A stretch of DNA of 20,000 nucleotides from an uncultured virus (IMG/VR IMGVR_UViG_3300008261_000059) (taxonomy: Duplodnaviria; Heunggongvirae; Uroviricota; Caudoviricetes), in the IMG/VR virus record IMGVR_UViG_3300008261_000059, positions 57,720 to 77,719 of that record. One strand, given 5' to 3'. Made by a program: the position numbers and the translations under genes. Positions 92 through 19,998 of the stretch are shown here, in pieces. Positions within the stretch are counted from its first letter, which is position 1; each line of letters opens with the position of its first letter. Below the pieces are notes generated by a model. The model was given only the letters and a program-made list of their open reading frames with translations, had not been told where the DNA came from and ran no database searches.

Positions 92-321
92 CAATAAGAC
101 TCGATTTCGGCAAGTTTCTTTTGTTGACGCAGTTCTTTTACAATCATTTGGAGTTCAGAAATGTCTTCATTCAGAATAGTAAGGTCATCATACATCATTT
201 CTGCTTGATAAGCACTCCTGCACTTTTTGTATTGCTTGGAAAGTTTATCGAACTTTTTCTTTGCTTCCTTGAGGTCTTTTTCATACTCGGGAAGTGTTTT
301 TTCGAATTGTTGATAATTCAT
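91..321 (-). CDS. hypothetical coiled-coil protein
   Basis: 76 aa ORF with ATGA coupling to the upstream ORF; helical K/E-rich sequence. Confidence 0.75.
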   Translation of the reverse strand: MNYQQFEKTLPEYEKDLKEAKKKFDKLSKQYKKCRSAYQAEMMYDDLTILNEDISELQMIVKELRQQKKLAEIESY

Positions 322-443
322 TTGAGATAAGGACTAGACCAGTAAGAACGAAAAACGGAATAAACGATAACAACAGTGCTGATAACACCAACCAAACCGA
401 TAAAGGTAATGGCATCACTTGTAACTGCGTAAGTTTCGGGCAT
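318..443 (-). CDS. small single-TM protein (MPETYAVTSDAITFIGLVGVISTVVIVYSVFRSYWSSPYLK)
   Basis: Manually translated 41 aa ORF with GAGGT RBS, directly downstream of promoter copy 1. Confidence 0.7.
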   Translation of the reverse strand: MPETYAVTSDAITFIGLVGVISTVVIVYSVFRSYWSSPYLK

Positions 444-466
444 AACCTCGACTTGTTTACCTTGTA

Positions 467-525
467 ATCATAGCACCTTTGAGGTGCGGAATCAAGTGAA
501 AATGGACAGTCCAAAAACCGTCCAT
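467..525 (-). promoter_or_regulatory. repeated putative early promoter, copy 1
   Basis: TATGAT at 467-472; palindromic box ATGGACAGT-N6-ACCGTCCAT at 502-525; 29-nt spacer. Confidence 0.75.
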
Positions 526-545
526 CGTTATACATATGTATTCAA

Positions 546-836
546 TCAACCAACCACTTTTTGGTAGGTAATCCGAATATCTTGTGCGAAATCATCTCGT
601 TTCTGTTGCGTAGTAAGGTTTGCAACTACGAATCGAATAGTTGCATAAACACCCACAACTTGCATCAGGGAATTGAAAACAGGGATGCTATCAACAATCT
701 CTACAAGTCCATGAAGAAGAACTTGAGAGACAATAACTACAGCAAAGATGCCAGCAGTCAGTCCAACTTTCTTTAGCACATCATCAGTCACATTTTCAGT
801 GTAGAAGTCTTTAACAGTGGAAAAATCAAATTGCAT
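546..836 (-). CDS. CAAD-domain / CURT1 (CurT)-like thylakoid membrane protein
   Basis: Two hydrophobic helices joined by VDSIPVFNSLMQVVG, then RFVVANL..QQKRDDF..I...YQKVVG; matches the CAAD pattern (AIdsiPll..lleLVG..WFvyrnL...R..l....vlG). Confidence 0.75.
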   Translation of the reverse strand: MQFDFSTVKDFYTENVTDDVLKKVGLTAGIFAVVIVSQVLLHGLVEIVDSIPVFNSLMQVVGVYATIRFVVANLTTQQKRDDFAQDIRITYQKVVG

Positions 837-852
837 TGTTTTGGAAAATAAA

Positions 853-1020
853 TTACTTGTCAAAAATTTCTAGGAACTTATCAATCTCTTCAATCTTTGC
901 AGTATAGTCTGCAACTAGGTCTGCGTGGGGATAATTATAGTATTCTGGTCGTTTCATGCAATCGAGCAAATGTTGCTTAACTGCCTTTCTGATTTCACAT
1001 TCAATTTGTATTCCAGACAT
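853..1020 (-). CDS. hypothetical protein (55 aa, MSGIQIECEIRKAVKQ...)
   Basis: Manually translated; abuts the stop codon of the upstream ORF. Confidence 0.65.
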   Translation of the reverse strand: MSGIQIECEIRKAVKQHLLDCMKRPEYYNYPHADLVADYTAKIEEIDKFLEIFDK

Positions 1021-1326
1021 TTATTCTTCAGTAGGTACTGGTGGAGGAGGAGGTACTGGGGCAATAGGTTTTTGAACAACTACTGGTTTTTGTTCAATCT
1101 GAGTAGGTGCTACCTGATTGTTGGGAACTACAATTTCCGAAGTTTCAGCAGGAGCAGGGATTGATGTTTGTTCAATTTTCTGTTCAAGTTGCTCAATCTT
1201 TTGGTCCAGAACACTTGGAGGAACTTCCGAATTTGATTGTGCTAATTTCCAACCAGCAGTCGCAGCACCAAAAATACTAGCAAGTGCTGCAACTACAGAA
1301 ATAGTAGATTGAAACTTACTCACCAT
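1021..1326 (-). CDS. membrane-anchored protein with coiled coil and Pro-rich tail
   Basis: N-terminal hydrophobic helix; PVPPPPPVP C-terminus. Confidence 0.7.
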   Translation of the reverse strand: MVSKFQSTISVVAALASIFGAATAGWKLAQSNSEVPPSVLDQKIEQLEQKIEQTSIPAPAETSEIVVPNNQVAPTQIEQKPVVVQKPIAPVPPPPPVPTEE

Positions 1327-1583
1327 TCACCTCGTTGAATCAGAATCTTTTTGATTTCGTTAAAAATAAACTTCTTAAGTTTTGCATCATCAGTTGCTAC
1401 ATAAGCACTATGTAAACGATGCAGGTACTCCTCTTGAGTGCTGAGTTTGACTACCTTTACATTAGTCACACCAAGGTCACGCATCGGAGAACCTGCTTTT
1501 ACTTTAGCACGTCCGAAGTTTCCAGATACAACACCTTGAGTGCGGAGTTTGGGTTTGATTTTGGAGAGATTTGAGTCCGTCAT
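1320..1583 (-). CDS. basic hypothetical phage protein
   Basis: 87 aa ORF directly downstream of promoter copy 2. Confidence 0.75.
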   Translation of the reverse strand: MTDSNLSKIKPKLRTQGVVSGNFGRAKVKAGSPMRDLGVTNVKVVKLSTQEEYLHRLHSAYVATDDAKLKKFIFNEIKKILIQRGEW

Positions 1584-1605
1584 TACCCTTTTTGAGGATG
1601 CTCTT

Positions 1606-1663
1606 ATTATAGGGCAAAACCGACCCCGTGGGAGGGGTGCTGTGCCAGTTCCATAAGTGTCAG
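1606..1663 (-). promoter_or_regulatory. repeated putative early promoter, copy 2
   Basis: TATAAT at 1606-1611; TGTGCCAGTTccatAAGTGTCAG from 1641. Confidence 0.8.
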
Positions 1664-4025: not shown

Positions 4026-4048
4026 TAGAGTTCTGTGTGTATGAGTGT

Positions 4049-4107
4049 ATTATAAGGCATCAAGGTCGGTTCTGGTGTGTCCTTGTGACGGTTGTTCAGG
4101 TGTCACA
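4049..4107 (-). promoter_or_regulatory. repeated putative early promoter, copy 4 (inside the 3' end of a CDS)
   Basis: TATAAT at 4049-4054; TGTGACGGTTgttcAGGTGTCACA from 4084. Confidence 0.8.
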
Positions 4108-7740: not shown

Positions 7741-7761
7741 CGGTTGGTTGCTTATGAGAGT

Positions 7762-7819
7762 ATTATAAGGCATCACAGGGGGCTTTGGAGTGTCCTTGTG
7801 CCAGTTCTTCAAGTGTCCT
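7762..7819 (-). promoter_or_regulatory. repeated putative early promoter, copy 5
   Basis: TATAAT at 7762-7767; TGTGCCAGTTcttcAAGTGTCCT from 7797. Confidence 0.85.
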
Positions 7820-8241: not shown

Positions 8242-8264
8242 TAGGTGTCTGTGTGTATGAGAGT

Positions 8265-8322
8265 ATTATAAGGCAAAACCACCTCCTTGTGGGAAGTGGT
8301 GTGCCAGTTCTTCAAGTGTACA
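8265..8322 (-). promoter_or_regulatory. repeated putative early promoter, copy 6 (hairpin in spacer)
   Basis: TATAAT at 8265-8270; TGTGCCAGTTcttcAAGTGTAC from 8300. Confidence 0.85.
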
Positions 8323-10882: not shown

Positions 10883-10904
10883 CGGTTTGGTTGCTTATGA
10901 GGTT

Positions 10905-10962
10905 ATTATAGACCAATAGGAGACCTTGTGGAGGTCTCCTGTGCCAGTTCTTCAAGTGTCCT
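10905..10962 (-). promoter_or_regulatory. repeated putative early promoter, copy 7 (perfect hairpin in spacer)
   Basis: TATAAT at 10905-10910; AGGAGACCT-tgtgg-AGGTCTCCT; TGTGCCAGTTcttcAAGTGTCCT from 10940. Confidence 0.85.
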
Positions 10963-12652: not shown

Positions 12653-12803
12653 CTCTAAGTCTCACTCGGGGTTGAATGTCGTTGAACTCATCATACAGCA
12701 TCCTGGCAAAGAGCAGGTGGGGTCTTGTGCCAGTTTCCAAACTGGTGCTCGTTGCGACCGTCCACATTATATCAAGTTCAATTTTCGGTGGTAGTGGTTT
12801 CAT
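12645..12803 (-). CDS. hypothetical protein (52 aa, MKPLPPKIELDIMWTVATSTSLETGTRPH...)
   Basis: Manually translated; coupled at both ends; reads through promoter copy 8. Confidence 0.55.
   Translation of the reverse strand: MKPLPPKIELDIMWTVATSTSLETGTRPHLLFARMLYDEFNDIQPRVRLRDD
12690..12748 (-). promoter_or_regulatory. repeated putative early promoter, copy 8 (intragenic)
   Basis: TATGAT at 12690-12695; TGTGCCAGTTtccaAACTGGTGC from 12726 (spacer 30 nt). Confidence 0.65.
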
Positions 12804-14548: not shown

Positions 14549-15247
14549 TTAGAAATTGTAGTTTTGGCACCTAATACAAGGTGGGGGATAATTACTCTTT
14601 AAGTGAGTAACAAAAAAAACTTGAGTCAATCTAAAATCTTCATTTTTCATCAAAAAACCAGAATGTCTATGCCAATAGGAACCACTATACATAATCATTC
14701 TGTTGTAGACATTCTTAAATTCTACAGTCTTATGAAATTTTAAATTGTGCTTTGATTTGATTTTAGCATATTCATCTGGAGGCAATCCTTTTTTGTTATA
14801 AAAATTATTTCTTACACTCCAGTCAATTTCATTTTCATCAATATCATCTGCTTCATATATCGAAGTTCCAGAATCTAAACTTGGATTTGGATTTAAATAG
14901 ATAACTCCTGCAAAAATTGTATTATCGTCAACATGTGTCCATCCAGAGTTTACTTCATTTGAATCTTCAATTGAAGATTCAAATGGATAAATTTTTTGAA
15001 AATAAGATTGAACTTTCCAATCCAAATAATTTGAATTAAAATCAAAAAACAAAGAAAAGACCTTATTGCATAAAACATCAAAAAGATGGGGTGATATTTT
15101 ATGAACTAGTTGACTTCTTTCTCCTGGATAATTTCCATCCTCTTTCTTTGAATAGTCTAAAGATAAAGCAAAGTCTCTAATTTTATCTGGGTCAGAGTAA
15201 AAATCATCAACACATGTTATTGGAAATAAATTTTTACTCGTAATCAT
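14549..15247 (-). CDS. DUF6445-type 2OG-Fe(II) oxygenase-like protein
   Basis: DDFYSDPD.IR.FAL, YPG.RS, H.D (THVD), AGVIYLNP, GT..Y, NVYNR..Y...H, RLTQVFF motifs. Confidence 0.75.
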   Translation of the reverse strand: MITSKNLFPITCVDDFYSDPDKIRDFALSLDYSKKEDGNYPGERSQLVHKISPHLFDVLCNKVFSLFFDFNSNYLDWKVQSYFQKIYPFESSIEDSNEVNSGWTHVDDNTIFAGVIYLNPNPSLDSGTSIYEADDIDENEIDWSVRNNFYNKKGLPPDEYAKIKSKHNLKFHKTVEFKNVYNRMIMYSGSYWHRHSGFLMKNEDFRLTQVFFVTHLKSNYPPPCIRCQNYNF

Positions 15248-15416
15248 CTTGTTCGTATGGTTCTTCTAATAGATAAAATTTTTCTTCTTTATTATAGACT
15301 AAAATGTTACTTTGATTTTTAGGAGTGTACCAATCTTTAATCTGACTGTAATAAAAGTCAATCACTTGGTTGTGAGTTAATTCTTTTGCCCAATTTTCAG
15401 ACATCATCAACATCAC
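15234..15416 (-). CDS. hypothetical protein
   Basis: About 57-60 aa ORF filling the gap between two genes. Confidence 0.55.
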   Translation of the reverse strand: MMLMMSENWAKELTHNQVIDFYYSQIKDWYTPKNQSNILVYNKEEKFYLLEEPYEQDDYE

Positions 15417-15820
15417 TTATTCATTTGAAGTGTAGGAACAGGCATACCACCTTCAGTTGGAACATAAATGGTCACATTACCATTCTTGGCACCATCTTCG
15501 ATACCAGTGATATACAGATACTGAAGATACTCACGGTTGTCCTTCAGTGAATCACCGATGATTTGGTTTGCCTTAGCAACACCAGTAGCACGGATGATTT
15601 CAGCATCGGCAAGTTGTTGAGCACTATCTTTCTTTGCTTGTGCTTCCAGAACTGCTACCTGACGAGTATACTCTGCTTTCTGAAGTTCTGCTTTACCAGC
15701 AAGAGATTGTTGCCACACATTATATTGTGGACCACCAATAAAGATGAGACCACCAATTACAATCACACCAACAGAAATAGCAACGATAGCAGGGTCAATA
15801 AATCCGTTTTGTTGTTTCAT
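15413..15820 (-). CDS. SPFH/band-7-like membrane protein
   Basis: N-terminal TM helix; AxA-rich coil AEIIRATGVAKANQIIGDSL..YLQYL..; TIYVPTE tail. Confidence 0.7.
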   Translation of the reverse strand: MKQQNGFIDPAIVAISVGVIVIGGLIFIGGPQYNVWQQSLAGKAELQKAEYTRQVAVLEAQAKKDSAQQLADAEIIRATGVAKANQIIGDSLKDNREYLQYLYITGIEDGAKNGNVTIYVPTEGGMPVPTLQMNK

Positions 15821-17170: not shown

Positions 17171-17335
17171 TCAGTGATTGTGACAAACTCCATCTTGGTG
17201 GCAGTGTGCTTGATTTGCATTCATATGGAAGGTCCCATGATAAAAACCAAATCCAATGAAAGCAGTCGATGCGGAGACTACTGCTGCAACAAAGAAAGGA
17301 GCAATATTGTTTACAGTTAATGTGAGTGACTTCAT
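17171..17335 (-). CDS. small TM protein with a His/Cys-rich C-terminus
   Basis: Start refined to MKSLTLT, downstream of the late promoter; ends HCHQDGVCHNH. Confidence 0.7.
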   Translation of the reverse strand: MKSLTLTVNNIAPFFVAAVVSASTAFIGFGFYHGTFHMNANQAHCHQDGVCHNH

Positions 17336-17363
17336 GAACTTTCTAAAATGAATAATTCTTGAG

Positions 17364-17371
17364 TATTTATA
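17364..17371 (-). promoter_or_regulatory. T4-type late promoter TATAAATA
   Basis: Exact gp55 consensus about 30 nt upstream of an ATG. Confidence 0.7.
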
Positions 17372-17395
17372 AAATAAAAGGGGCATTGCACCCCT
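17372..17395 (-). terminator. intrinsic terminator of the tmRNA gene
   Basis: AGGGGT-gcaat-GCCCCT hairpin followed by a T-rich tail. Confidence 0.75.
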
Positions 17396-17633
17396 ATGTA
17401 AGTTTTGGGTAAGAAGGAAACTTATAACCCCCTCCACTCATTTAGAGTCAAACTGCAACAGGTGCAGACTGACGAGTGAACTTGACGATTTTATTCGCTG
17501 CGTTTGTTTGTTTGTTTGTCCCGTCAACAGATAAGACCTTTATGCCCCGTCGAAACCAGTACATCCCCCTGAAATGGAGATGTGGGGAATCGAACCCCAG
17601 TCCGAAACATCAGAATTCCCATCCTCTTGAACA
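17396..17633 (-). ncRNA. ssrA: circularly permuted two-piece tmRNA (cyanobacterial type)
   Basis: Acceptor piece ...GGACTGGGGTTCGATTCCCCACATCTCCA (ends 17575) precedes coding piece GGGGATGTACTGGTTTCGACGGGG (starts 17568); 7-bp acceptor stem with G3:U70; tag ORF 17448-17501 AANKIVKFTRQSAPVAV*. Confidence 0.93.
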
Positions 17634-17639
17634 CTTTAT

Positions 17640-17668
17640 ATATTACTCTTTTTCTTTCAAATAGTCAA
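17640..17668 (-). promoter_or_regulatory. sigma70-type promoter for the tmRNA
   Basis: TTGACT-17 nt-TAATAT, overlapping the def stop codon. Confidence 0.55.
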
Positions 17669-18083
17669 CAAATAAAACTCCATCTAAATGGTCAATCTCA
17701 TGTTGAACAATTCTCGACAATAAACCATCTACTTTTTCGAAGATTGGTTTTCCCTTTGCGTTTCTATATTTAATCTTTATTGATTCTGGTCTTTTCACAT
17801 TATCAAAAACACCAGGAACACTTAGACATCCTTCTTCAAAATTAACAAGGGTATCACTTTTCCATACTATTTCTGGATTGATTAAAATCCAGTCTTTTCC
17901 TTTATTATCAACAATTATAATTCTTTTACTTACACCAACTTGAGGAGCAGCAATACCAATACCATTTTTCTCTCTCATGGTCTTTGCCATATTAAAACAA
18001 AGATACCTTATGGTATCATCAATATTTGCTACTCTTTTTGCTTTTTCTCTTAAAACCTTTGACCCAATCGTTTGAAGTTCCAT
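17643..18083 (-). CDS. def: peptide deformylase
   Basis: GIGIAAPQVG, EGCLS and QHEIDHLDG motifs; short C-terminus typical of cyanophage PDFs. Confidence 0.96.
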   Translation of the reverse strand: MELQTIGSKVLREKAKRVANIDDTIRYLCFNMAKTMREKNGIGIAAPQVGVSKRIIIVDNKGKDWILINPEIVWKSDTLVNFEEGCLSVPGVFDNVKRPESIKIKYRNAKGKPIFEKVDGLLSRIVQHEIDHLDGVLFVDYLKEKE

Positions 18084-18105
18084 ACTTCCCTACGCAATTG
18101 GTTAA

Positions 18106-18178
18106 TGGAGAATAGGAGACTCGAACTCCTGACCTTGGCCTTGCAAAGACCCTGCTCTACCAACTGAGCTAATTCCCC
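18106..18178 (-). tRNA. tRNA-Ala(TGC)
   Basis: Cloverleaf, GGGGAAT/ATTCTCC stem with G3:U70, anticodon TGC. Confidence 0.93.
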
Positions 18179-18210
18179 GTTTTTTTTTTTATTTAGGATA
18201 AAAATCCTAA

Positions 18211-18292
18211 TATCGATGAGAGGACTTGAACCTCCACGAATTACTTCACTGGAACCTAAACCCAGCGCGTCTACCAATTCCGCCACATCGAC
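18211..18292 (-). tRNA. tRNA-Leu(TAG)
   Basis: Cloverleaf with long variable arm, anticodon TAG. Confidence 0.93.
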
Positions 18293-18295
18293 AAA

Positions 18296-18421
18296 GAAAA
18301 CACCAGACCTTATTCTTCCTGTTCTCAGGAACCACCAGGTAATGGGCAGGGAGACCTTGCAAGGATTTGTACCCCCGAAGTTTGTCCAGCATTTTCAGTT
18401 TGGAAGACCTAGGACTTCCAA
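18296..18421 (-). ncRNA. structured intergenic RNA candidate (possibly manA-motif-like)
   Basis: GC-richer spacer with hairpins TTGGAAG/CTTCCAA and TTCCTG-agaa-CAGGAA, a CCTTGCAAGG palindrome and CTTCGG; family assignment is from memory and unverified. Confidence 0.45.
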
Positions 18422-18493
18422 CTCCCCCACCTCGATTCGAACGAGGAACCTTAGAGTTAACAGCTCTCTGCTCTGCCGTTGAGCTATAGGGGA
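18422..18493 (-). tRNA. tRNA-Asn(GTT)
   Basis: Cloverleaf, anticodon GTT. Confidence 0.92.
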
Positions 18494-18499
18494 ATAAAA

Positions 18500-18667
18500 T
18501 TAACTTTCCTTAGAAAGCATATATTCAACAGTGTTTGCAATGTCATTCATTGCAACTCGTAAATCTGGTTGTTGACCAGTTTCCTGCTTAACGATTGGTC
18601 GGGAATCATCAGTTAATGACCACCTCCACTGACCCATATCTTTACAGTACCAGAGATTTATTTTCAT
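18500..18667 (-). CDS. hypothetical protein (55 aa, MKINLWYCKDMGQWRWSLTDD...)
   Basis: Manually translated; ATGA overlap with the oxygenase. Confidence 0.7.
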   Translation of the reverse strand: MKINLWYCKDMGQWRWSLTDDSRPIVKQETGQQPDLRVAMNDIANTVEYMLSKES

Positions 18668-19275
18668 TTGTTAGAAATATAATCATAATGTGGATGAATA
18701 TGCATAAACATTGTAATTGAGTATCTACCCAATTTTTGATTTAAATACTTTTCATCCATTTTTACTTCAGTAACAGAATGTTTTGCCCAAGAAGGAAACA
18801 TCAACATTGAGTTATTTTGTACTTCAAATGTTTTTCCAATATCATTAAGAATGAGGTCTCCCCCATCAAAATGCTTTGGTTCTTTGAAAAACCAAAATAA
18901 CACTGTTACTGATGCAGAATCAGTATGTGGTTCATAACAATCTGCATTTTCATAATAAGATAATAATGTTTTAGAGTAATTTGTATTTAGCACTGCTCTA
19001 TTTGAATAGTGCAATTGACTATAATCTAATATATAATTATCTAAAACTTTTCTAGTTAATCTCCATAAAGATGTTTTATGTGGATTTGTGTAAAAATCAC
19101 TCACCCAAACACCTTTATTCTTCTTCTTGAAAGAACCATTTTTTTCTGCTGAACCAGTTACTTCTGGACCCTCAAGAATTAATGGATTATTTAAAAAGTT
19201 TAACTCATCAAAAATCAAATCCAATTCGGATTGACTGAAACAATTTTCTTTATAAAGATAGTGAATTGTGTCCAT
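18664..19275 (-). CDS. 2OG-Fe(II) oxygenase (prolyl-4-hydroxylase-like)
   Basis: HTD, F.GGDL, MFPS..KHSVT.V and RYSI motifs; start refined to MDTIHY because the longer frame overlaps tRNA-Pro. Confidence 0.88.
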   Translation of the reverse strand: MDTIHYLYKENCFSQSELDLIFDELNFLNNPLILEGPEVTGSAEKNGSFKKKNKGVWVSDFYTNPHKTSLWRLTRKVLDNYILDYSQLHYSNRAVLNTNYSKTLLSYYENADCYEPHTDSASVTVLFWFFKEPKHFDGGDLILNDIGKTFEVQNNSMLMFPSWAKHSVTEVKMDEKYLNQKLGRYSITMFMHIHPHYDYISNK

Positions 19276-19300
19276 ATAATTAAAAGAAAATTGTTTCAAG

Positions 19301-19374
19301 TCGGGATGATAGGATTCGAACCTACGACCCTCTGTTCCCAAAACAGATGCGCTACCAAGCTGCGCTACATCCCG
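19301..19374 (-). tRNA. tRNA-Pro(TGG)
   Basis: Cloverleaf, anticodon TGG. Confidence 0.95.
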
Positions 19375-19405
19375 AGTTTGTTTAACAATATATGTATATT
19401 GTTAA

Positions 19406-19477
19406 TGGGAAATACTGGATTCGAACCAGTGACTTACCACTTGTAAGGAGGCCACTCTACCACTGAGTTAATTTCCC
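19406..19477 (-). tRNA. tRNA-Val(TAC)
   Basis: Cloverleaf, anticodon TAC; weak anticodon stem. Confidence 0.88.
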
Positions 19478-19552
19478 TGGAGCGAAAGACGAGATTCGAA
19501 CTCGCAACAACCTGCTTGGAAGGCAGGGACTCTACCGTTGAGTTACTTTCGC
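19478..19552 (-). tRNA. tRNA-Gly(TCC)
   Basis: Cloverleaf, anticodon TCC, encoded CCA. Confidence 0.94.
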
Positions 19553-19603
19553 AAATGTTGAGGAATTTCTTCCTCAACTCACTTCCTTCACACGGACTAA
19601 AGA

Positions 19604-19632
19604 AGTGTAAGACAGAATTGAAATTCTGTCAA
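19604..19632 (-). promoter_or_regulatory. sigma70-type promoter inside the tRNA array
   Basis: TTGACA-17 nt-TACACT, overlapped by the inverted repeat GACAGAATT-ga-AATTCTGTC. Confidence 0.7.
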
Positions 19633-19705
19633 GCCCACGGTCGGACTTGAACCGACGACCTACGGTTTACAAAACCGTTGCTCTATCCAGCTGAGCTACG
19701 GAGGC
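19632..19705 (-). tRNA. tRNA-Thr(TGT)
   Basis: Cloverleaf, anticodon TGT. Confidence 0.94.
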
Positions 19706-19725
19706 ATTTTGCTCACAAGGAGCAA

Positions 19726-19810
19726 CGGAAAGGGTGGGATTCGAACCCACGGATGCTTTCACATCGCTAGTTTTCAAGACTAGAGCCTTCAACCACTCGA
19801 CCACCTTTCC
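19726..19810 (-). tRNA. tRNA-Ser(TGA)
   Basis: Cloverleaf with long variable arm, anticodon TGA. Confidence 0.94.
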
Positions 19811-19819
19811 AATATAACA

Positions 19820-19848
19820 ATCATACTATATGTAGCATAGATTGTCAA
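19820..19848 (-). promoter_or_regulatory. sigma70-type promoter inside the tRNA array
   Basis: TTGACA-17 nt-TATGAT just upstream of tRNA-Ser. Confidence 0.75.
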
Positions 19849-19849
19849 G

Positions 19850-19923
19850 CGTTCTCTGGAGGATTTGAACCTCCGACTTCTTGGTTCGTAGCCAAGCACT
19901 CTATTCCACTGAGTTAAGAGAAC
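19850..19923 (-). tRNA. tRNA-Arg(ACG)
   Basis: Cloverleaf, anticodon ACG. Confidence 0.94.
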
Positions 19924-19926
19924 AAG

Positions 19927-19998
19927 CACAGGATAGAGGACTTGAACCTCTACTAAAAGTTTTGGAGACTCTCGTGCTACCAATTACACCAATCCTGC
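19927..19998 (-). tRNA. tRNA-Trp(CCA)
   Basis: Cloverleaf, anticodon CCA. Confidence 0.9.

Follow-up and report, generated by a model that had tools for sequence, protein, structure and literature searches.

The window analyzed here is a stretch of 20,000 nucleotides that forms the final part of a 77.7-kb IMG/VR record of an uncultured virus (IMGVR_UViG_3300008261_000059; CheckV completeness 37%). Based on sequence comparisons, we conclude that the product of an open reading frame (ORF) close to its start, at positions 546-836 on the minus strand, is a stand-alone protein of 96 residues that belongs to the CAAD/CurT/CURT1 family, and that the carrier is a freshwater T4-like cyanomyovirus of the Kyanoviridae type. 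Cyanobacteria and plants use this family to bend and organize their photosynthetic membranes. In our phylogenetic trees, the phage protein branches deeply as sister to one of two picocyanobacterial paralogues and is not a recent capture. The family as such is known; the novelty lies in its carrier and in the truncation that the phage members consistently show.

The protein matches the Pfam CAAD model (PF14159) with an E value of 1.9e-14 and 53.7 bits against a gathering cut-off of 30.7, and residues 23-96 cover profile positions 12-85 of 85; a six-frame search of the genome returned the same match at 52.8 bits. In profile-profile comparisons with hhalign, an alignment of the phage family matched 17 picocyanobacterial CAAD proteins with a probability of 98.8% (E 8.7e-17, 29% identity, phage residues 19-96) and 13 proteins of other cyanobacteria, which we take to be CurT-like based on their motif, with a probability of 96.2% (E 2.6e-9, 22% identity). 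Compared with one another, the picocyanobacterial and the CurT-like group reach 96.7% (E 4.1e-10). The loop proline P52, G62 in the second transmembrane (TM) helix, and R80 after this helix are invariant in a 14-sequence alignment of phage and host proteins, in 64 phage-family sequences, and in the host alignments. This invariance, together with the coverage of the full domain, argues against a compositional artefact as the source of the matches. A first-pass annotation of this DNA had proposed the CAAD layout and a conserved arginine in the motif QQKRDD; the former is supported by the Pfam score and the matches to cellular CAAD proteins, and the latter is R80.

The 96-residue ORF and all sequence strings that the same annotation had quoted are present, i.e., VDSIPVF (residues 48-54), VVGVYATIRFVVANL (residues 60-74), QQKRDD (residues 77-82), and a C-terminal VVG. 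TM1 is strongly hydrophobic, with Kyte-Doolittle means of 1.7-2.3 over 19 residues. AlphaFold2, using a 64-sequence alignment, predicts helices at residues 5-15, 18-50, 52-73, and 77-95, with the second and third broken at P52. Hydropathy and the AlphaFold2 model together describe a two-TM hairpin with a short loop, and the model adds a soluble C-terminal helix (residues 77-95). The C-terminal part is the better predicted one (block values of 82-90 in the predicted local distance difference test [pLDDT] over residues 61-96, including this helix), and residues 73-96 form a charged tail with four lysines plus arginines and three acidic residues. The N-terminal helix at residues 5-15 is short and has a pLDDT of 47-56. 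In Foldseek searches, the model had no match at E ≤0.001 in BFVD (three rows at E 7.7-9.5) and no rows in the PDB, and a profile search of PDB sequences gave no match at E ≤1. The lack of a structural match fits the statement, in a passage of a review, that CURT1 structures are unsolved (PMC9950537). The predicted helices fit the CurT-type plan.

The CAAD ORF extends from an ATG at 836 to a TGA stop codon at 546-548. An alternative TTG start codon at 863 would run into the upstream ORF; because most homologues have 96 residues and begin with MQF, the ATG at 836 is the likely start. We identified 82 homologous clusters (at 90% identity) with E values from 5e-51 to 6e-24; they are 64-95% identical to the phage protein, all contain PF14159, and nearly all have 96 residues. 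Pairwise ratios of nonsynonymous to synonymous substitution rates (dN/dS) of the gene are 0.07-0.27 (15 pairs from 6 sequences), which indicates purifying selection. Because of these ratios and the 82 homologues, the frame is more than a chance ORF. The gene is syntenic in all seven related viral contigs, and its flanks are conserved except for the two ORFs immediately upstream, which vary. Contigs from RNA libraries of lake samples (four runs from two studies) cover 520-811, 374-783, 586-779, and 680-831 without a single difference; the uncovered parts of 1-2000 in single RNA runs (e.g., 403-536 in X15 and X18) carry no evidential meaning. Altogether, the CAAD gene is real and conserved, and it is probably expressed.

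The placement of the gene in a phage, which had also been proposed, is supported. The remainder of the 77.7-kb record has genes for baseplate wedge and tail-fibre proteins of the T4 type, as well as for SpeD, a helicase, a Dam-type methylase, and an HNH endonuclease. The gp6 of this virus shares 60.7-63.1% identity with those of the Synechococcus phages S-SCSM2R, Sf-FS3, and S-SSM7, which have genomes of 216-244 kb. Moreover, a 247-kb relative rated 100% complete contains a CAAD gene with 80% identity as well as two Photo_RC genes, psbA and psbD. The gene, thus, has the hallmarks of a host-derived cyanophage gene: it lies in a phage genome, is homologous to a host gene, and is under selection. 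Near-identical DNA is present in freshwater and lake metagenomes (studies P1, P7, and P8 for DNA; P9 and P10 for RNA), with rows flagged as possible sources set aside. That a host gene came to lie on a chimeric or mis-binned contig might be considered because CAAD is otherwise a cyanobacterial and plastid family, present in 34 of the 101 sampled genomes of the phylum. This artefact has next to no chance of being the explanation and we regard it as refuted: the gene shares a single contiguous record with phage structural genes, its flanking genes match phage families, the gene order is the same on seven other viral contigs, including the 247-kb one rated complete, and the phage-type CAAD has no relative among 511 candidate stretches from 185,579 species genomes.

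Among viruses, a second kyanovirus lineage (four contigs) has a 97-residue CAAD copy that is 47% identical, scores 57.2 bits with PF14159, and lies at another locus, where it adjoins a gene for a Dam methylase; one of the contigs also carries Kyano_Gp96. In contrast to the classic cyanophage photosynthesis genes, from which the first-pass annotation had set it apart, CAAD has no match in cultured phages or a fitting PHROG family: tblastn with the phage protein (E ≤1e-3) and a divergent member, P0086 (E ≤1e-2), gave no match in 50,697 INPHARED cultured-phage records, and the best PHROG match of the phage protein is phrog_2169 ("membrane protein") at an E value of 0.014. Twelve relatives gave scattered, weak PHROG matches, with phrog_33969 appearing three times (E 0.0017-0.027). 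Profiles of the two host types (picocyanobacterial and CurT-like) found no relative in viral contigs (92 and 149 candidate stretches, respectively), and P0085 likewise found none. Two ESM Atlas clusters with 81 and 87 members, mostly from viral taxa, are automatically named CAAD-containing. In full-text searches, no publication turned up that connects CAAD, CurT, or CURT1 with cyanophages. We conclude that the domain call in viruses already exists in automated annotation, while we found none in print.

An exhaustive HMMER search of 1.84 billion representatives gave 10 matches at E ≤0.001, of which six have 94-108 residues (36-48% identity) and four have 111-136 residues (~30% identity). None of the matches listed is better than 5e-21 despite the 82 close homologues, and the query's own 50% cluster is absent from the list. 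The longer type (P0092) is a chromosomal picocyanobacterial gene with 53 loci in Synechococcus (including WH7803), Cyanobium, and Prochlorococcus. Synechococcus WH7803 has two CAAD genes (L026/L068 and L065), a Cyanobium genome has two (L067 and L069), and a Prochlorococcus genome has one (L066), all above the Pfam cut-off. In WH7803, the CAAD gene neighbors genes for a cobalamin adenosyltransferase, ThiF, a JAB domain protein, fructosamine kinase, and an amine oxidase, which give no functional hint. Two metagenome-assembled genomes labelled Klebsiella and Sphingobacterium (L041 and L050) include contigs that have a typical picocyanobacterial CAAD gene and are most likely mis-binned. The presence of one or two CAAD genes in picocyanobacteria, including Prochlorococcus, can be set against their treatment as lacking the family or as doubtful; passages of a review state that Prochlorococcus and Synechococcus elongatus encode no CURT1 homologue (PMC9950537), and the picocyanobacterial matches are called doubtful in parts of another paper (PMC6395441).

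For the phylogenetic analysis, 46 of 114 rows were chosen to span the clades; unk_P0093 (end branch 3.5) was omitted, as were 67 rows that were redundant or nearly duplicated others. In this tree, 13 phage rows lie on one side of a branch with a support of 98/93, and 17 P0092-type rows are separated by another (92/91). Together, these two groups are split at 99/96 from the other cyanobacterial CAAD proteins and the second picocyanobacterial paralogue; the latter (calls of 184 and 260 residues) clusters, by way of long branches, with the CurT-like proteins from other cyanobacteria. A quick tree of all 114 rows agrees with this. The phage protein, thus, joins a host CAAD paralogue and is separate from the CurT-like branch. 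The phage clade is nested in no host clade, and its branch is long, which suggests that the gene was captured long ago or diverged fast.

The phage form is most distinct at its N-terminus. The median number of residues before TM1 is 25 in the phage family vs. 63 in picocyanobacterial and 67 in other cyanobacterial homologues. The first-pass annotation had also suggested a probable amphipathic N-terminal helix; this suggestion did not hold up, as the best 14-residue window in residues 1-24 has a hydrophobic moment of 0.34, which is reached by 1300 of 2000 shuffled sequences. By comparison, the CAAD protein of Synechococcus WH7803 has an N-terminal moment of 0.66, reached by 9 of 2000 shuffles, and the medians are 0.38 for the phage family, 0.58 for picocyanobacterial, and 0.67 for other cyanobacterial homologues. 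The C-terminal helix shows the opposite tendency, with a median moment of 0.57 in the phage family vs. 0.41-0.50 in hosts. According to parts of one study, CurT homologues are predicted to have an N-terminal amphipathic helix, two TM helices, and a C-terminal helix (PMC12462475). In the review cited above, the amphipathic helix is described as one of two candidate elements for curvature by CURT1, and the passage leaves the choice between hairpin and helix unresolved (PMC9950537).

We suggest, at a rough probability of 0.55, that the phage CAAD protein acts as a minimal hairpin that alters or holds the thylakoid organization of the host by mixing with or replacing host CAAD proteins. The first-pass annotation had suggested that the phage could remodel host thylakoids or that its protein could be a dominant-negative partner of host CurT. 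According to our model, the gene would be transcribed last in a unit of small genes that lies in the accessory region, and its product would insert as a two-helix hairpin into the internal (thylakoid) membrane of the host with both termini in the cytoplasm. It would act through the conserved hairpin core, i.e., the loop proline, the glycine in TM2, the arginine after TM2, and the C-terminal helix; in CurT/CURT1, this core is thought to wedge the membrane and oligomerize. From the loss of an extension of ~40 residues and the lack of a measurable amphipathic helix, we suggest that the phage protein is most likely a pared-down form, released from any regulation exerted through the N-terminal extension, that would mix with or stand in for host CAAD. 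Thylakoid organization could, in this way, be changed or held during infection, alongside the activities of phage-encoded psbA and psbD.

Several observations weigh against this proposal. The localization, oligomerization, and membrane effect of the phage protein are predictions from its family membership. Of the two TM helices proposed early on, TM1 is strong and both hairpin helices appear in the AlphaFold2 model, but no 19-residue window of TM2 reaches the Kyte-Doolittle threshold of 1.6; this helix is moderately hydrophobic and contains R68. The model itself is of middling confidence (mean pLDDT 75, predicted template modelling score 0.39). The N-terminal amphipathic helix that belongs to CurT/CURT1 in the strict sense is not detectable in the phage protein, and a CurT-like curvature function is, therefore, less certain than family membership. 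The nearest cellular relatives belong to the uncharacterized picocyanobacterial paralogue and not to the branch with the CurT-like proteins; given the 99/96 split, the phage protein does not qualify as an orthologue of characterized CurT/CURT1 proteins, with the caveats of long branches and a tree that has no labelled Synechocystis CurT. In addition, the phage branch has a length of 1.57 changes per column, and since long branches meet here, the sister relation could be partly an artefact. The contigs from RNA libraries do not prove transcription of the gene because DNA may be present in such libraries. Finally, the gene is rare (7 loci and another 4 in a total of 2.9 million IMG/VR contigs, and none in the cultured-phage records), which argues that it is dispensable for most cyanomyoviruses.

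Three other functions can be weighed against thylakoid organization. The protein could be a membrane anchor or adaptor only, in which the hairpin places short cytoplasmic helices on the thylakoid and recruits or sequesters a phage or host protein without shaping the membrane. CAAD is known as a thylakoid anchor inserted in or appended to valyl-tRNA synthetase, leucyl-tRNA synthetase, and others in cyanobacteria, and the Pfam family was defined on this synthetase anchor domain; moreover, the phage protein lacks a detectable curvature-aiding amphipathic helix, while its C-terminal helix is the better predicted part and has the higher moment (0.57 vs. 0.41-0.50 in hosts). We nevertheless consider an anchor function unlikely, as the phage protein is stand-alone, exposes only ~22 and 24 residues to the cytoplasm, and has no conserved partner gene: the upstream ORFs at 853-1020 and 1021-1326 are missing in three and six of the seven related loci, respectively, and the second lineage has a different neighborhood. 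An effect on host cell division, with the phage protein arresting or uncoupling division early in infection, is suggested by the defects of curT mutants, a functional link to SepF/FtsZ, and the disturbance of Escherichia coli division by Synechocystis CurT, all described in parts of one study (PMC12462475). Such a function would also suit the surroundings of the gene, in which small accessory genes follow a promoter cassette that is repeated in the window. However, the sequence has no sign of a contact to FtsZ or SepF, and the missing N-terminal part is the most host-divergent one, making this function quite unlikely.

The same architecture could also serve a generic phage function at the plasma membrane, as a two-TM holin or antiholin or in superinfection exclusion of the T4 Imm type. 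A protein of 96 residues with two TM helices and a charged C-terminal tail resembles class II holins and T4 Imm, and to our knowledge, the holins of T4-like cyanophages have not been identified. Pfam, PHROG, and the neighboring genes, however, reveal no lysis or exclusion family match and no lysis cassette; the PHROG matches of the protein and its 12 relatives are weak and inconsistent. CAAD is also absent from nearly all cyanomyoviruses, unlike an essential lysis gene, and lies in the accessory region next to small ORFs with no assigned function rather than with late genes. Together with the specific homology to a host thylakoid family that is kept under purifying selection, these observations make a holin or exclusion function very unlikely.

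A stronger version of our proposal is that a lineage of freshwater cyanomyoviruses and a second, more distant kyanovirus lineage encode the first virus-borne thylakoid-architecture factor, a hairpin-only protein that co-assembles with host CAAD and resets thylakoid organization, possibly with a link to thylakoid division, for phage production. We regard this version as tentative and, on balance, doubtful. If it is true, the natural hairpin-only variant would also tell which of the two, hairpin or amphipathic helix, causes membrane bending. The known cyanophage photosynthesis genes supply parts of electron transport, and we know of none that acts on thylakoid architecture. The phage CAAD protein would, therefore, add membrane organization to the host processes taken over by cyanophages, and it would do so with a small, testable gene. 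A phage family that keeps the hairpin with no measurable amphipathic helix also bears on the curvature question as it is left open in that part of the review (PMC9950537).

The transcription context of the CAAD gene is defined by elements upstream and downstream of it (Table 1). In the repeated cassette, a conserved box (CACTTGAAGAACTGGCAC) is followed by a GC-rich dyad of ~24 nucleotides, which is variable, and then by TATAAT; each copy lies just upstream of a small-gene group. Box and -10 element are too far apart for the box to be a -35 element. The cassettes may be early promoters. After the copy nearest to the CAAD gene, with no further copy in between, three ORFs and the CAAD gene follow each other with short or overlapping junctions; one of these ORFs (1021-1326) is inserted two genes upstream of the CAAD gene. 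The cassette is, thus, the probable promoter of this unit, of which we infer CAAD to be the fourth and last gene. Downstream, the conserved stem-loop shows one compensatory double change from GC to CG and several GU/AU changes. It does not represent a canonical terminator because a T-run is present in the window sequence only; nevertheless, the transcription unit probably ends at this stem-loop. The promoter-like site beyond the stem-loop has a conserved dyad, GCACC...GGTGC (473-487), in its spacer and, judged by its match to the consensus, would start the next unit and not the CAAD gene. The higher depth of RNA-library contigs from ~400 downward is a weak hint at this site, as there is one depth value per contig. 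A scan of 1-2500 found five promoter-like and three terminator-like elements vs. 6.4 and 1.7 expected from shuffled sequences, i.e., no enrichment.

The region downstream of the CAAD gene also contains an 84-residue ORF (281-535, minus strand), which we considered as a membrane protein that could be a partner of CAAD. We rejected this idea, as the frame is interrupted by a stop codon in a related locus (L105) and has a dN/dS of 0.48. Its sole family match is a weak one to PspC-TM (E 0.0016), and its 5' third covers the stem-loop and the promoter-like site; it is probably not a gene as called. Within it, 321-445 (minus strand) is nearly invariant among five related phages, with a dS of 0.06-0.11 vs. 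0.6-0.8 in the flanking genes, and the depth of RNA-library contigs peaks there and downstream. This segment holds two overlapping frames that each encode a small single-TM peptide, i.e., a 41-residue ORF (318-443) with GAGG before its ATG and an internal 44-residue reading of 281-535. Dual coding and an RNA element are both candidate explanations. RNA folding of 318-548 gave a z-score of -1.0, with 31 of 200 shuffles folding at least as well.

Farther away in the window lie four accessory genes, ten tRNA genes, and a tmRNA (Table 1). ORFs 18050-18286 and 19789-19983 as well as the TTG start of the oxygenase gene at 19341 overlap tRNA genes and are probably mis-called. The tmRNA, for which ARAGORN gives the tag peptide AANKIVKFTRQSAPVAV, overlaps the mechanically called ORFs 17171-17437 and 17476-17664.

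Table 1. Features of the CAAD gene, its surroundings, and the remainder of the window
Feature	Position	Strand	Basis or remarks
Phage CAAD gene	546-836	-	ORF, PF14159, AlphaFold2 helices, hydropathy, dN/dS, RNA-library contigs
CAAD protein layout	Residues: short N-terminus 1-22; TM1 ~24-46; loop VDSIP; TM2 ~54-72; C-terminal soluble helix 77-95		
55-residue ORF directly upstream of CAAD	853-1020	-	No family match; in 4 of 7 related viral loci
101-residue ORF, hydrophobic N-terminus and Pro/Val/Gln-rich tail	1021-1326	-	Only in the window and an identical locus (L100)
87-residue ORF, first after the cassette	1320-1583	-	Conserved in 7 of 7 related loci
Cassette copy nearest upstream of CAAD: conserved box, dyad, TATAAT	1605-1660	-	Repeat comparison
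Six cassette copies	1605-1660, 4040-4104, 7753-7817, 8256-8320, 10896-10960, 12716-12744	-	Repeats on the coding strand
Conserved stem-loop, 20 nucleotides 3' of the CAAD stop	502-525	-	Base pairing (alignment columns 23-48) retained by all 6 sequences
Promoter-like site: TTGATT, 17-nucleotide spacer, TATGAT	467-495	-	Consensus match only
DUF6445 (phrog_1644)	14549-15247	-	Pfam/PHROG
phrog_11227 "protease"	15413-15820	-	Pfam/PHROG
Peptide deformylase	17643-18083	-	Pfam/PHROG; Pfam E 1.3e-49
2OG-Fe(II) oxygenase	18664-19341	-	Pfam/PHROG
Ten tRNA genes: Ala, Leu, Asn, Pro, Val, Gly, Thr, Ser, Arg, Trp	18106-19998	-	
Permuted two-piece cyanobacterial-type tmRNA	17380-17664	-	RF01851 133.2 bits (gathering 70); RF04321 87.9 bits

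Among known systems, the P0092-type proteins, such as the product of the 124-residue WH7803 gene (L026), are the closest cellular relatives of the phage CAAD protein. The two share ~30% identity, the stand-alone two-TM hairpin, an NLTT..KR motif after TM2, and a C-terminal glycine, and they are sister groups in the trees. In contrast to the phage form, the host proteins have 121-182 residues among the calls made and carry an N-terminal extension of ~40 residues, which is acidic and rich in serine and threonine, as well as an amphipathic helix (moments of 0.54-0.66); both are missing or degraded in the phage. Moreover, the host motif GQWSW in TM2 is replaced by ATIRF, and the phage branch is long. 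CurT (Synechocystis slr0483 and S. elongatus Synpcc7942_1832) and the plant and algal CURT1A-D proteins share PF14159 with the phage protein as well as, according to the parts of the two papers concerned, the predicted two TM helices and a soluble C-terminal helix (PMC12462475, PMC9950537). The CurT-like proteins differ from it by an identity of 22%, an N-terminus of ~67 vs. 25 residues, and a separate branch in the tree, while the phage form is virus-encoded. The CAAD domain of aminoacyl-tRNA synthetases matches the same Pfam model and occurs in fused frames of ~1000-1200 residues in the phylum sample; these fused forms score lower and lie outside the tree, whereas the phage form is stand-alone and has no enzyme part. 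The classic cyanophage photosynthesis genes (psbA, psbD, hli, petE, petF, and others) encode parts of electron transport and light harvesting and are widespread in cultured phages, while CAAD is of a membrane-architecture type and occurs in 0 of the 50,697 cultured-phage records. Like CAAD, however, they are host-derived, encode components of the thylakoid membrane, and are carried by cyanomyoviruses, and psbA and psbD occur together with CAAD in the complete 247-kb relative.

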